DNA of 6,462 bases, from positions 1 to 6,462 of IMG/VR virus record IMGVR_UViG_3300000359_000035; one strand, 5' to 3'. Origin of the DNA: a virus. Shown piece after piece: positions 2,228-6,462 of the stretch. The notes under the pieces are model-generated. The model was given only the letters and a program-made list of their open reading frames with translations, had not been told where the DNA came from and did no database searches. The translations under genes and the position numbers were made by a program. Numbering within the stretch: the stretch's first letter is position 1; each line of letters starts with the position of its first letter.

Positions 2228-4306
2228 TTAAATGTTAGGAATTACTTTTGCTGACATTACTCGTCTTGGATTGACATTAAATGCTATTTGTATCCAAAAA
2301 TTTTGCGCGGTTATGTCTGTATCGGCGAAGATATTGTTGTAGAGGTGTGGAAATATGTAAGTAGTGTAGGTTTTTATATCTCCAAATATCCTATTTAAAC
2401 ACATCCAGCCCTCATTTTCGACAAGCGCAAAGTTCCCATATGTTTTATTAACATTTGTCATGTATTCAATCCATGCAGGTTGTTTACCGATTGATTTACC
2501 CGACATTGCGTAAGGTGTATTTGCGTTTACGCTTCGGTATAATCTGTCTTGAAAGCCTATACCATCAAGTTGTGGTTTATGCAGATCGTCTAGTGTCAAT
2601 AAATAATTATCCCACTCGTTGCCTTGGAAATAATCAACTCTTGGAGTGAGAGATGTGATACAAAATATGTATCCGGGTTCGTCTGCCTTGAACACAATAT
2701 TCCCTCCCTTGTGATTGGTTGCTATGCCTCTACCGGCTAATGTTCCTAATGGTTGTTCTTCGGTTCCGCTGTTGTTTACAACTTCTTGGAATTCAACTTC
2801 AAGTGAGCTACCACCGAGATATAGAGGTGTTTCGATATGATTTAATCCTCCACTTGTGTAAACGGTCTGAATCCATGCATTATACGATCCGTCGGATACG
2901 GCAATTCTGTTGAGCATAGTGTACACTTTTTTTGCGAGGTTAAGAGTGTCCAGAGTGAAACTACCTCCGCTCGTATCGATTGCTGTAATAGCGTTGATTC
3001 CTGAATCTCCGTCTATCCATTCGGTATTTACCCAGTTTGTATTGATATCGCTTTGATATGTTTTAAGTGCTAAACCAACCATTGGTTGCGAACAGCTTGG
3101 CGCTACACCATTTTTTGTCTGTACAGGTTTAAAAATATCGACTATGAACGGATCTTGTGATATATATTGGGTTCTTCCTGCTGCGAGTATATTTTCTCGC
3201 ATATCGTCGATCGTACTTAAATCATAGCTATTATATCTCGCTTCTACACTTGTAGCGAGAGAAGGTTTGTCTACATAATAATATGTTCTAAAAGTTGCTT
3301 CGGTTGGATAGAATTCAGCTTCAAGCCTATAATACTCTACTCCGGTTACGGCGTTGCTTACAGATTTTGTAATGTCTGTTAAAACGCCTGTTTCTAAGAG
3401 ATTGTTTATAGTTCCATATATTTTAATTGCTTGTTTACCCCCTACATTTCCGCCACTTCCAAGTAACCAACCTGTTTGCATGTTAATGCTTACTTCTATT
3501 TGTCCTGAATTCTGATCTTGGGTGAATGGTTTTATAGCCAATACCCAAGTTTGATAGTCTGTGTTTTTTTTAGGGTATTCACCTGTAGAATTTGCGAAAT
3601 TTTGTACACCCGTAGCGACAACAGTCCATGACTTTTTATTATCGCTGCTATTTGCAACAGTTAAGCTCATTTGTCCCTCTCCGAGGGTGCTTGCCACTTG
3701 TTTATATAAATAGTAGGTATTTCCAGATATTACGTAAAATTTAGATTCTTGTTTGTTTGCATAATAATTTTTAAAGATGTCGTAATACATCATTATTTTA
3801 ATGCAGTTGAAAGTCTTCATCTTTGAACCGTAACCTTCTAAGGTCGAGAGAGCCCTTACCCCTGTATATGCAACTAGTGAACTGGGATTGACTTCATTGA
3901 GTAGAGAGTCATTACTTCCGTCCATTTTGCTCTTATCGGTATATAGATTGTAAGGTATTGGGTACATAGGGAATTTTACTTGTTTCATATTTAGTCCTAT
4001 ATTTAATGCATTATTATGCAGCATAGCATTGTACAGTCTAATAGGACAAAAGAAGAAGTCGTTTTGTTGCTTAAAACTTCCAAACAGAGGCCCAATTGTT
4101 GGGTGTGTTAGTGTGTGACACCTAGTTTGGATAGGAAAGGTATCTCCTGGTAATATTAAATGATATAATGTAGGAATTAGAGATCCTACGGCCGCTGATG
4201 TTCGACAAACACTACTAAGGTCGTGCGTACTACGGTTATAATTATTTAACCGCGTCATCATTTTTTTGCCACCTCCAAGGGTGTTCTTTCCAATACTGAC
4301 TTTCAT
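2228..4306 (-). CDS. Major capsid protein (microvirus VP1 / F-protein family), 692 aa
   Basis: Longest ORF in the window. N-terminal segment ...STHDLSSV...SLIPTLYHLILPGDTF resembles the conserved HDLS...EVLPGDTF start of Microviridae VP1. Size fits gokushovirus/Alpavirinae-type MCP with large insertion loops. ATG (4306-4304) overlaps the stop of the upstream ORF as ATGA. An alternative start is at MMTRL (aa 16/17). Confidence 0.88.
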   Translation of the reverse strand: MKVSIGKNTLGGGKKMMTRLNNYNRSTHDLSSVCRTSAAVGSLIPTLYHLILPGDTFPIQTRCHTLTHPTIGPLFGSFKQQNDFFFCPIRLYNAMLHNNALNIGLNMKQVKFPMYPIPYNLYTDKSKMDGSNDSLLNEVNPSSLVAYTGVRALSTLEGYGSKMKTFNCIKIMMYYDIFKNYYANKQESKFYVISGNTYYLYKQVASTLGEGQMSLTVANSSDNKKSWTVVATGVQNFANSTGEYPKKNTDYQTWVLAIKPFTQDQNSGQIEVSINMQTGWLLGSGGNVGGKQAIKIYGTINNLLETGVLTDITKSVSNAVTGVEYYRLEAEFYPTEATFRTYYYVDKPSLATSVEARYNSYDLSTIDDMRENILAAGRTQYISQDPFIVDIFKPVQTKNGVAPSCSQPMVGLALKTYQSDINTNWVNTEWIDGDSGINAITAIDTSGGSFTLDTLNLAKKVYTMLNRIAVSDGSYNAWIQTVYTSGGLNHIETPLYLGGSSLEVEFQEVVNNSGTEEQPLGTLAGRGIATNHKGGNIVFKADEPGYIFCITSLTPRVDYFQGNEWDNYLLTLDDLHKPQLDGIGFQDRLYRSVNANTPYAMSGKSIGKQPAWIEYMTNVNKTYGNFALVENEGWMCLNRIFGDIKTYTTYIFPHLYNNIFADTDITAQNFWIQIAFNVNPRRVMSAKVIPNI

Positions 4307-5321: not shown

Positions 5322-5630
5322 TTAGTAAAGTTTTTTAATAGTGAGTATATAATTAGAATTTGCCGCATTGATTTTTCGCTTTAAAAGCAATGATTCTTTT
5401 TTTGAATGACAAATAATATATTTTGAATATAATTTTCCTTGTTCGTCGAATTTGCTGTATTTTAATTCATACCTATGTCCGCTTCTTTTTCTTTCTCCTT
5501 CATAAATGATTTCCCATTCTTCCGAGCATGGAAAGTTACTCCACCAGTTAATGGATTCATCTTCGTTTTTGAAATTCATTGTTAAGATGGTTTTTTTCTC
5601 AATGTGTTTTAGTAGCATAATTGTTCTCAT
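5322..5630 (-). CDS. Hypothetical small protein, paralog A of a tandem pair (102 aa); first gene after the intergenic promoter
   Basis: MRTIMLLKHIEKK...FKNEDESINWW...KRSGHRYELKY...CHSKK...KRKINAANSNYILTIKKLY. Homologous over its length to ORF 5009..5320. Preceded by a TTTG / TAnnTTTG Bacteroidetes-like promoter. Confidence 0.5.
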   Translation of the reverse strand: MRTIMLLKHIEKKTILTMNFKNEDESINWWSNFPCSEEWEIIYEGERKRSGHRYELKYSKFDEQGKLYSKYIICHSKKESLLLKRKINAANSNYILTIKKLY

Positions 5631-5657
5631 GACTTTGCTTGTTTTATTGTTACACTA

Positions 5658-5689
5658 CAAAGATACCACAGAAATCCCCTTTTTCCAAA
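5658..5689 (-). promoter_or_regulatory. Candidate Bacteroidetes sigma-A-type promoter (-33 TTTG, -7 TATCTTTG) driving the ORF102-to-VP1 operon
   Basis: Minus strand: TTTG at 5689-5686 and TATCTTTG at 5665-5658 (a TAnnTTTG match), separated by 20 nt, about 28 nt upstream of the ORF102 ATG (5630). Sits in the only sizeable intergenic region with upstream A/T-rich TTAAC repeats. No SD sequences precede any gene, consistent with Bacteroidetes. Confidence 0.4.
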
Positions 5690-5755
5690 AAAATATCCCA
5701 TTTTAACTTATGTTATTAACATATTTAACTATTGCCCGATTCCCGCAGGGAATAC

Positions 5756-5768
5756 AGCGAAACGAGCT
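5756..5768. repeat. Direct repeat copy 1: AGCGAAACGAGCT (iteron-like)
   Basis: 12/13 identical to AGCGAAGCGAGCT at 5819-5831. The CGAGC pentamer recurs at 5763, 5817 and 5826. Confidence 0.45.
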
Positions 5769-5818
5769 CCGCCGTTGAGCGTACAGAAAGCATGTAATGC
5801 TTTCCCTTATACACCCCG

Positions 5819-5831
5819 AGCGAAGCGAGCT
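5819..5831. repeat. Direct repeat copy 2: AGCGAAGCGAGCT (iteron-like; overlaps the GCGAAGC mini-hairpin)
   Basis: See copy 1. Spacing is 63 bp. Confidence 0.45.
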
Positions 5832-5874
5832 TCTGTTCTCGGCCGAAGGCCGCCAATTACTGTCTGGTATTATT

Positions 5875-6417
5875 TTAAATTTTTACAGTCCCACCCAAAG
5901 ATTCGTAATGCTCTACCGTCGCGCGCCTCCTTACCCTTTCAAATATCCACATGTTGAATTTGATGTATTCTTCTATGGCACTGTCCCATTTTTGCTTTTT
6001 CTCTTGCATAGGAAAATCGGCCTGTGACGGCAACTCTGTTAGATTTTCCGTGCTGAATTTTTCAGCTAATTTTTTAGCTTCTGCAATAGCTCGTCGTTGT
6101 TTTTCCTCTTTCCTTCTAGTTTTCATAGCATTCCACGCAATAGGATTATCTCCCATTACCTCACGTCCGTATTTTTGCCAATATTCTCTAAGGTTGTCTA
6201 TTGTTTTCCAATCGTCTGCTTTCACTTTTTCTCCATATATCCATAGTATTCCTCTATTAAGGTTATTAATCCACATTTTCTCACGCTCTTTCTCGGTGAA
6301 TATTTTGTTTTTGTAGTATTTCGGCATAGCCATTTTTGTACCGTTTCGGAACGTATAGGTAGCTACGTTGATATTCTTATAATTCTGTTTTTGCCATAAA
6401 TAATCTAATCTATCCAT
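5875..6417 (-). CDS. Replication initiator VP4, C-terminal 180 aa of the same gene (Met at 6417 is internal; 6409-6417 duplicates 1-9)
   Basis: The open frame is continuous with 10..597 when the window is circularised. It contains MPKYYKNKIF and a basic/helical tail as in microvirus Rep C-termini. Stop TAA at 5877-5875. Total Rep = 376 aa. Confidence 0.88.
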   Translation of the reverse strand: MDRLDYLWQKQNYKNINVATYTFRNGTKMAMPKYYKNKIFTEKEREKMWINNLNRGILWIYGEKVKADDWKTIDNLREYWQKYGREVMGDNPIAWNAMKTRRKEEKQRRAIAEAKKLAEKFSTENLTELPSQADFPMQEKKQKWDSAIEEYIKFNMWIFERVRRRATVEHYESLGGTVKI

Positions 6418-6462
6418 GTATCCTGCTCCGATACCCGAACTCGCTAATACAATTTGTTTGAA
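6409..6462. repeat. Second copy of the 54-bp terminal direct repeat
   Basis: Identical to 1-54. Confidence 0.95.

Follow-up and report, generated by a model that had tools for sequence, protein, structure and literature searches.

The GC-rich island that follows the Rep gene of a circular Bacteroidota microvirus is tentatively identified as the core of a modular cis-acting cassette that works as folded single-stranded DNA, most likely as a complementary-strand origin or SSO-like signal. This reading fits the evidence best and stops just short of probable. The island hairpins exist and their pairing is under selection, and the cassette is virus specific and has been exchanged between microviruses that are only distantly related. 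In the human gut virome, microviruses dominate the ssDNA fraction, and we know of no cultured member of the lineages described here. The window, which is the whole stretch of 6,462 nt that was analyzed, begins and ends with an exact 54-nt direct repeat (1-54 = 6409-6462) and is therefore a complete circular genome of 6408 nt. Its best GenBank capsid matches are uncultured faecal microviruses with no more than 58% identity. Every real gene is on the − strand, and the sole sizeable non-coding stretch (5631-5874, 244 nt) runs from the Rep stop codon (5875-5877, − strand) to the next ATG. Read on the gene-sense strand, this stretch contains, in this order, the AATAGTAYCAGACAGTAAT block, then the GC island, an AT-rich block in which GTTAA is repeated three times, and a promoter. 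The genes and the intergenic features are as follows.

− strand: five small ORFs
− strand: major capsid protein, 692 aa (Pfam Phage_F, phrog_514)
− strand: 111-aa ORF
− strand: pilot protein, 377 aa (phrog_8689)
− strand, start at 597 and across the circular junction, 3' part at 5875-6462: Rep, 376 aa (Pfam PF23343 REP_ORF2-G2P, E=1.2e-13; phrog_942, E=3.8e-36)
5856-5874, − strand: non-coding block directly past the Rep stop, AATAATACCAGACAGTAAT, family consensus AATAGTAYCAGACAGTAAT(CAGACAGTA)
5840-5852, + strand: hairpin 1, CGGCC-GAA-GGCCG, which includes CCGAAGG
5805-5831, + strand: module B, CCTTATACACCCCGAGCGAAGCGAGCT, which includes d(GCGAAGC) at 5820-5826
5786-5804, + strand: hairpin C, GAAAGCAT-GTA-ATGCTTTC, 8-bp stem with a GTA triloop
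5754-5783, read on the − strand: module E, TACGCTC-AA-CGGCGGAGC-TCGTT-TCGCTGT, conserved primary sequence
5739-5753, + strand: hairpin F, ATTCCC-GCA-GGGAAT, 6-bp stem with a GCA triloop
5703-5735, − strand: AT-rich block with GTTAA three times (9-13 nt spacing), the palindrome TATGTTAATAACATA, and GCAATAGT, which is the right-hand limit of the cassette common to the lineages described below
5658-5693, − strand: putative sigma-ABfr-type promoter, TTTG, 20 nt, TATCTTTG, assigned from its sequence and its relatives

Rep carries the motifs FTTLTI, HLHGIFF, and YITKY, and its ATG overlaps the stop codon of the pilot protein gene (ATGA). The putative promoter at 5658-5693 would drive the gene block that starts at ATG 5630, and its −7 box is kept in nearly all relatives. 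The Bacteroidota sigma-ABfr consensus is TTTG / TAnnTTTG (PMC7366714), and the presence of a promoter of this type points to a Bacteroidota host.

The initial annotation, made from the letters alone, described a GC-rich island of GNA-triloop mini-hairpins and iteron-like repeats just after the Rep stop codon. All of the listed motifs are present at their positions when the + strand is read. The island (5739-5852) lies between the Rep stop and the sigma-ABfr-type promoter, 22 nt past the stop, and is a local GC peak (~0.45 compared to 0.30-0.39 in the surroundings). Four separate hairpins have G-N-A loops on the + strand with the middle base free, and d(GCGAAGC) is found once in the window, at 5820. 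The hairpin cluster is real. Three GNA-triloop hairpins with a stem of at least 4 bp exist on the + strand of the whole genome, all of them in the island, and none of 2000 dinucleotide-preserving shuffles of the 114-nt region reached three (mean 0.03). The occurrence of this cluster beyond chance is one of the reasons for the initiation-signal reading. Folding of 5700-5880 as ssDNA, a check that the annotation had proposed for the − strand, gave z-scores of -2.9 for the − strand and -2.6 for the + strand, both better than shuffles. Nearest-neighbour folding gave -28.3 kcal/mol for the sense strand compared to -24.2 kcal/mol for the GNA strand, with parameters that may not credit GNA loops; the predicted preference for the sense strand counts slightly against an initiation signal on the GNA strand. 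The + strand ORF at 5797-6027 was considered as a coding sequence and rejected because it starts in a subgroup-specific stem and the family indels are not multiples of three.

In DNA, GNA triloops and GCGNAGC mini-hairpins have exceptional stability, and they bind SSB poorly (PMC13037366). Hairpins of this type are located at the priming sites of G4, St-1, alpha3, and RSF1010 ssiA (PMC13037366), and the known occurrence of this loop class at ssDNA-phage priming sites supports the assignment of the island as an initiation signal. The GNA reading is true of the + strand only, and the gene-sense loops are TGC, TAC, TTC, and TTC. The annotation reasoned that the motifs form extraordinarily stable hairpins in the virion and named the − strand as the virion strand, yet the − strand loops are TNC, and this step of its argument does not hold. 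TNC loops have no special stability. Either the special loops are outside the virion or the lineage packages the antisense strand.

Relatives of the window (lineage A) were collected by a Rep-based scan of IMG/VR that found 25 genomes with a Rep that is 78-96% identical and 19 more distant genomes. The intergenic architecture is the same in all 25 close relatives. The module E decamer pattern ACGGCRGMRC matched in 24 of these 25 family members, and the 25th carries a variant. A strict pattern built from the invariant module E was then used to scan IMG/VR, metagenomes, and bacterial and archaeal genomes. It matched 24 IMG/VR contigs and 81 metagenome contigs that are mostly 6.1-6.4 kb and from the human gut. 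A comparison of ~85 distinct sequences shows the island to be mosaic and composed of modules, and ~100 related genomes keep the hairpins through compensatory changes. Among 15 distinct variants of hairpin F, compensatory double changes affect four of the six pairs and pairing is present in 98.9% of cells, a level of covariation reached by none of 500 shuffles. Five different stems occur and every one pairs, and the loop (TGC/GCA) is invariant but for one sequence. Hairpin C ranges from 6 to 12 bp in 31 distinct family sequences with 249 Watson-Crick pairs compared to six true mismatches; pairing is kept while the stem sequence and the tip vary freely. Pairing is also kept by compensatory change in the 5' extension hairpin of relatives. 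The compensatory pairing in hairpin F, hairpin C, and the 5' extension hairpin supports the initiation-signal reading. The annotation had held that a lack of conserved stems in related microviruses would speak against its proposal, and the stems are conserved. Of the functions that the annotation listed, a complementary-strand origin fits best.

Other parts of the island behave differently from the paired stems. The module E blocks TACGCTC, ACGGCGGAGC, and TCGCTGT are near-invariant in lineage A and in the two further lineages (B and C) described below. An ACGGCGG/TCGCTGT helix proposed by RNAalifold within module E was rejected because variants break the pairing without compensation. Conservation of the module E sequence without supported pairing counts against the initiation reading, since module E could equally be a protein-binding site on duplex DNA. 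The mini-hairpin motif GAGCGAAGCGA occurs in one or two copies per genome and is conserved in lineages A, B, and C, with a second copy in many lineage A genomes. The module B variants GCGTAGC, GTGAAGC, and GCGAAGT retain a GNA loop or a G•T pair on the + strand. Hairpin 1 is confined to the subgroup of the window (window, L001-L004, L018, L187, L190, and L197) and is invariant there. The two near-identical 13-nt direct repeats that were described as iteron-like are present, AGCGAAACGAGCT at 5756-5768 in module E and AGCGAAGCGAGCT at 5819-5831 in module B, and they are 92% identical. The pair matches only within the subgroup of the window, as the first copy belongs to a variable spacer and represents just one of its variants. 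The family-wide recurring unit is GAGCGAAGCGA, and the iteron interpretation is unsupported.

The annotation also offered stacked transcription terminators as a possible function. More broadly, the hairpins might act in RNA and end or stabilize the 3' end of a genome-length polycistronic transcript as terminators or exonuclease blocks, which we consider improbable. The lineage A island does lie between the last gene (Rep) and the only recognizable promoter. The intergenic hairpins of phiX174 double as terminators and provide a precedent, and canonical terminators with a GC stem and a T-run are present at the same place in distant relatives. However, none of the hairpins has a T-run after it on either strand, and a terminator scan of 5500-6000 on both strands returned zero terminator-like sites. 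Bacteroides uses canonical Rho-independent terminators (PMC7366714), and the island lacks this form. The cassettes of lineages B and C run opposite to the two co-oriented genes that enclose them, upstream of Rep. No rationale is known for the GNA loop rule in RNA, where the loops would read UNC, and an RNA function leaves the strong conservation of the module E primary sequence unexplained. The seven distant relatives inspected (L031, L032, L034-L036, L038, and L039) have unrelated GC-rich hairpin clusters in the first 260 nt after Rep, and some of these clusters resemble canonical terminators (CCCCCC...GGGGGGG and then TTTTT).

The same cassette was found in two other microvirus lineages. Lineage B consists of the proviruses L198 and L229 and the free 6.3-kb forms L207 and L253, and lineage C consists of L225, L245, and L166. 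The lineage B Rep is 27% identical to the window Rep, and the lineage C Rep is 37-38% identical to that of B. The cassette is ~115 nt in the window and up to ~220 nt in relatives. A 193-222-nt version that spans GGGAGGTTTTAAC to GCGCGCAATAGT is common to lineages A, B, and C; it is 77-81% identical overall and near-identical outside a swapped hairpin C, and its long 5' hairpin is also present in part of lineage A. A blastn-short comparison of the island flanks with lineages B and C detected nothing in common beyond the cassette. In B and C the cassette is located between the pilot gene, which is followed by a 27-aa hydrophobic ORF, and Rep. It is thus upstream of Rep, and both its genome position and its orientation relative to the genes differ from lineage A, the orientation being inverted. 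The behavior of the cassette as an exchangeable SSO module among Reps that are 27-38% identical supports the initiation-signal reading.

A phiX-like nick-site core follows the cassette closely on its 3' side in lineages B and C, on the same strand. The conserved motif GAACTYGATATWTAT is on the sense strand, 100-260 nt 3' of the cassette and on the same strand as the GNA loops, inside or just before the 5' end of Rep. It shares the ten-base core AACTTGATAT, which includes the G/A cleavage site, with the phiX174 origin CAACTTGATATTAATAAC. The motif match makes GAACTYGATATWTAT a candidate nick site for Alpavirinae-like phages. Its positions are as follows.

L207: 4251
L253: 6002
L198: 6383, − strand
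L225: 4941
L245: 5362, sense strand

The placement of the B and C cassette 100-260 nt 5' of GAACTYGATATWTAT on the GNA-loop strand is a further reason to read it as an initiation signal. In the proposed mechanism, the GNA-capped GC-rich hairpins and the d(GCGAAGC) mini-hairpin would stay folded in SSB-coated viral ssDNA. The folded hairpins and the invariant module E would mark the start site of the complementary strand, and a host priming factor (primase, a PriA-type primosome, or RNA polymerase) would recognize the cassette and start the complementary strand there. The cassette, being defined and conserved, is a concrete target for learning how Bacteroidota hosts prime viral ssDNA.

An alternative is that the cassette belongs to the Rep-dependent origin of the viral strand (dso). 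In that case, the supercoiled replicative form would extrude the hairpins, and these, module E, and the flanking repeats would jointly load Rep or position the nick. The cassette always adjoins the Rep gene, on its 3' side in lineage A and on its 5' side in B and C. Short repeats flank the island (CAGACAGTA twice and GTTAA three times), and module E is conserved as a primary sequence. AATAGT is present at both island borders and at the exact end of the inter-lineage homology, and illegitimate recombination that Rep mediates at nick sites is expected to leave breakpoints of this kind. A dso would also be expected to show the orientation relative to strand composition that is described below. 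Against these points, Reps that are only 27-38% identical would need a near-identical origin, and a phiX-like nick-site core is already present in lineages B and C, separate from the cassette and outside it. The hairpin C stem varies freely, which favors recognition of structure over sequence at that hairpin. We regard a dso function as unlikely, although less so than an RNA function.

A direct repeat of up to ~16 nt, AATAGTAYCAGnnAGT, flanks the island on both sides in L012, L010, L016, and others. The right-hand AATAGTAYCAGnnAGT-like copy occurs in many relatives after GCGCGC on the other side of the island, and the window is without a 12-nt part of this copy. These flanking repeats could be a recombination footprint or a pair of Rep sites.

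The lineage B proviruses provide information on integration. Bacteroidales microvirus proviruses are known to be flanked by dif-like sites, 28-bp sequences at which their junctions fall (Krupovic and Forterre, PMC3091885). L198 and L229 are each integrated in a chromosome of Bacteroidales type, with SmpB/THUMP-like genes on one side and a TPR gene on the other, and their ends are the dif-like direct repeats CATrATACAAATTATAGGACAAAT, beside the 3' end of Rep. The precedent of dif-flanked proviruses (PMC3091885) and the loose resemblance of GCGCGCAATAGTTAAAAATGTTAAT beside the island to dif raise the idea that a XerCD/dif-like attachment site includes the cassette as an accessory region, with a fold like that of the CTX-phi attP. 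The junction repeats of L198 are at ~2150-2200 and ~8410-8440, whereas the cassette is internal at 3660-3870. Measured from the B cassettes, the two provirus ends are ~1.5 kb and ~4.6 kb away. These junction positions exclude a dif-accessory role for lineage B. We did not find an integrated lineage A genome in the bacterial and archaeal genomes and contigs that were searched. The dif-like reading of the AT-rich block adjacent to the island was rejected on its poor register and arm match and on the location of the B junctions elsewhere. An accessory attachment-site function is the least credible of the explanations considered and is very improbable.

The cassette might also be a selfish or hitch-hiking recombination module without a phage function, such as a mini-element that is mobilized by Rep or through site-specific recombination between the AATAGTAYCAG repeats on its flanks. 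Its mosaic structure, with modules present or absent depending on the genome, the direct repeats of up to ~16 nt on its flanks, and its presence at differing positions and orientations in distant lineages agree with this idea. Assemblies of co-occurring viruses also cross over at the cassette and give rise to chimeric contigs of 8.3-8.8 kb that carry two capsid genes. A search of 185,579 bacterial and archaeal genomes with the strict module E pattern gave no matches except two chance ones inside a duplicated coding sequence of a Weeksellaceae MAG. On this result a host-derived repeat or MITE was rejected as the source of the cassette, and it weighs against a selfish module. No Rep-found family member is without the cassette (24 of 25 by pattern plus the one variant), and compensatory change keeps the pairing over a long divergence. 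Universal presence and compensatory evolution make a purely selfish module unlikely, and we give it little credence. The Rfam 15 covariance models gave no matches at E<=1 in the window and only noise in the longer L198 version, and ARAGORN detected no tRNA or tmRNA in the window. The lack of the cassette in bacterial and archaeal genomes and of any Rfam or tRNA match supports the initiation-signal reading. The dso, terminator, dif, and selfish explanations are all weaker than an initiation signal.

Two capsid genes of differing identity are present on the 7.5-8.8-kb contigs L010, L011, L016, L018, L025, L201, L208, and L247. These contigs look like assembly chimeras of co-occurring microviruses that are joined at the cassette. 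The cassette is a marker of recombination between co-infecting microviruses, and it explains chimeric assemblies.

The island was compared with characterized initiation signals. Like the island, the primase-dependent origins of G4, St-1, phiK, and alpha3 and RSF1010 ssiA are non-coding elements of small ssDNA replicons that consist of a stable hairpin cluster with a GCGNAGC/GCGNNAGC-type mini-hairpin, and they are conserved more than the neighboring genes. The CCGAAGG heptamer is present in both RSF1010 ssiA (PMC13037366) and hairpin 1 of the window. The G4-type origins and ssi differ from the island in that there is no sequence homology, the island host belongs to the Bacteroidota, the island is a mosaic of optional modules, and its GNA strand is antisense in the window lineage. 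A search of 50,697 phage records for homology to a characterized origin returned only chance AT-rich matches, and only the GCGAAGC and CCGAAGG heptamers are shared with characterized origins. The phiX174 n' (PriA) site is also a microvirus intergenic hairpin region with d(GCGAAGC) on the viral strand; in NC_001422 the GCGAAGC is at 2358 in the F-G intergenic region. It differs from the cassette in sequence, length, and genome position, as it is a single hairpin region between the capsid and spike genes, whereas the cassette adjoins Rep.

Rolling-circle plasmid SSOs are host-factor-dependent folded ssDNA elements that are interchangeable cassettes among unrelated Rep/dso combinations and are located shortly upstream of the nick site. 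Like the plasmid ssoA, ssoU, ssoT, and ssoW, the cassette is one module common to replicons with distant Reps, and its placement 100-260 nt 5' of GAACTYGATATWTAT in B and C would be SSO-like, judged from the motif match. It differs from these SSOs in that the RSB and CS-6 consensus elements were not identified in it, the replicon is a virus, and the host phylum is another one. A further precedent is in the reekeekee- and roodoodoo-microviruses, which have Rep-adjacent hairpins with compensatory substitutions that were tentatively interpreted as negative-strand initiation sites (PMC9865509). This similar interpretation in other microvirus clades (PMC9865509) is an additional reason for the initiation-signal reading. 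These hairpins resemble the cassette in their location beside Rep, nucleotide conservation, and compensatory substitutions, but their sequences are unrelated, they are single or double hairpins, and neither cross-lineage sharing nor an orientation flip was reported for them (PMC9865509). The idea that intergenic hairpins of other microviruses are possible negative-strand origins is already known (PMC9865509), and the phiX/G4 precedents are classical. What is new is this cassette, the fact that three microvirus lineages have exchanged it, and a coupling between its orientation and the composition of the strands.

That coupling was examined through the strand that carries the GNA loops. For every lineage A gene, the GNA strand is the antisense strand. 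Lineages B and C show the canonical arrangement, in which the GNA strand is the T-rich sense strand and bears the phiX-like nick motif. The dominant family loops on the sense strand are TTC, TCC, TAC, and TGC, which differ only in the middle base. Stem mismatches on the lineage A sense strand are A•C (equal to G•T on the GNA strand) in ~8 cases compared to 1-2 of the reverse, counts that are small and not independent of mutational bias. The excess of A•C over the reverse is consistent with an initiation signal that is folded on the GNA strand. The textbook rule is that the virion strand is the mRNA sense, and Microviridae are regarded as uniformly positive-sense. Under this rule the GNA strand of lineage A, being antisense to all genes, is not packaged, which counts against the initiation reading.

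Third-position T excess is a recognized signature of ssDNA phages (PMC3278643). Base fractions were determined at four-fold-degenerate sites of the sense strand, and the composition survey covered the whole window, L001-L044, L207, L225, L245, L253, and L259-L262. The values are as follows.

phiX174: T 0.59, A 0.09
Chp2: T 0.50, A 0.25
SpV4: T 0.65, A 0.28
Lineage B: T 0.60-0.62, A 0.13
Lineage C: T 0.54, A 0.16-0.18
Lineage A: T 0.23-0.26, A 0.44-0.51
Distant Rep relatives of A: T 0.07-0.28, A 0.45-0.70
Host genes beside the B provirus: T 0.28, A 0.31 (unbiased)

Lineage A and its distant Rep relatives mirror the usual T excess, so that the antisense strand of A resembles the sense strand of Chp2. 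Polymorphism is mirrored as well. Capsid genes have 19 A/G compared to 8 C/T sites in lineage A and 34 C/T compared to 11 A/G sites in lineage B, and the lineage B Rep has 28 C/T compared to 3 A/G sites. The mirrored composition and polymorphism identify the GNA strand of the cassette as the T-rich strand in A, B, and C, and the cassette orientation follows the T-rich strand in all three lineages. A caution is that phiMH2K, a cultured Bdellovibrio gokushovirus, is likewise A-rich on its sense strand.

These data leave two options: either the cassette works in both orientations or lineage A packages the antisense strand. Three observations agree with antisense packaging, namely the inversion of the cassette, the strand of the GNA loops and G•T-tolerant stems, and the T-rich strand at four-fold sites. 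From them we infer, as a possibility that is still doubtful, that the window lineage and probably a wider A-rich clade package the strand complementary to their mRNAs and that the cassette marks the viral strand everywhere. No report of antisense packaging in the Microviridae or of negative-sense microviruses was retrieved by a literature search. If the cassette orientation does report the packaged strand, strand polarity is not fixed in the Microviridae and the window lineage is a negative-sense member of a family regarded as positive-sense. This would change genome annotation, the interpretation of codon bias in ssDNA phages, and the reading of strand-specific virome libraries.

A nick site was sought in lineage A on both strands, and none was located. 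A phiX-like origin inside the lineage A Rep (AAAGTCGATATTAAACAC) was rejected as a coding coincidence for KVDIKH with normal synonymous variation. Another phiX-like motif, TTGAATTTGATGTATTC, lies 3' of the island on the antisense strand and was rejected because it is not conserved across lineage A. The sense-strand family consensus GATGTTAATAACA beside the island (5703-5735) resembles the AT-rich spacer of the phiX174 origin and varies among relatives. From its sequence, the AT-rich block at 5703-5735 could be a Rep-binding or nick region. Should GATGTTAATAACA be the nick site, the viral strand would carry the island in inverted orientation, an arrangement that would count against the initiation-signal reading.

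Two additional features were observed in lineage B. The sequence TATGTTAAAT is directly after the Rep stop codon in the L198/L229-type provirus. The 27-aa hydrophobic ORF (MAIIIGVPFFMLWYACIRALWRWIRRK) is located at 3870-3953 of L198 (− strand) between the pilot gene and the cassette, and it could encode a small membrane or lysis peptide.
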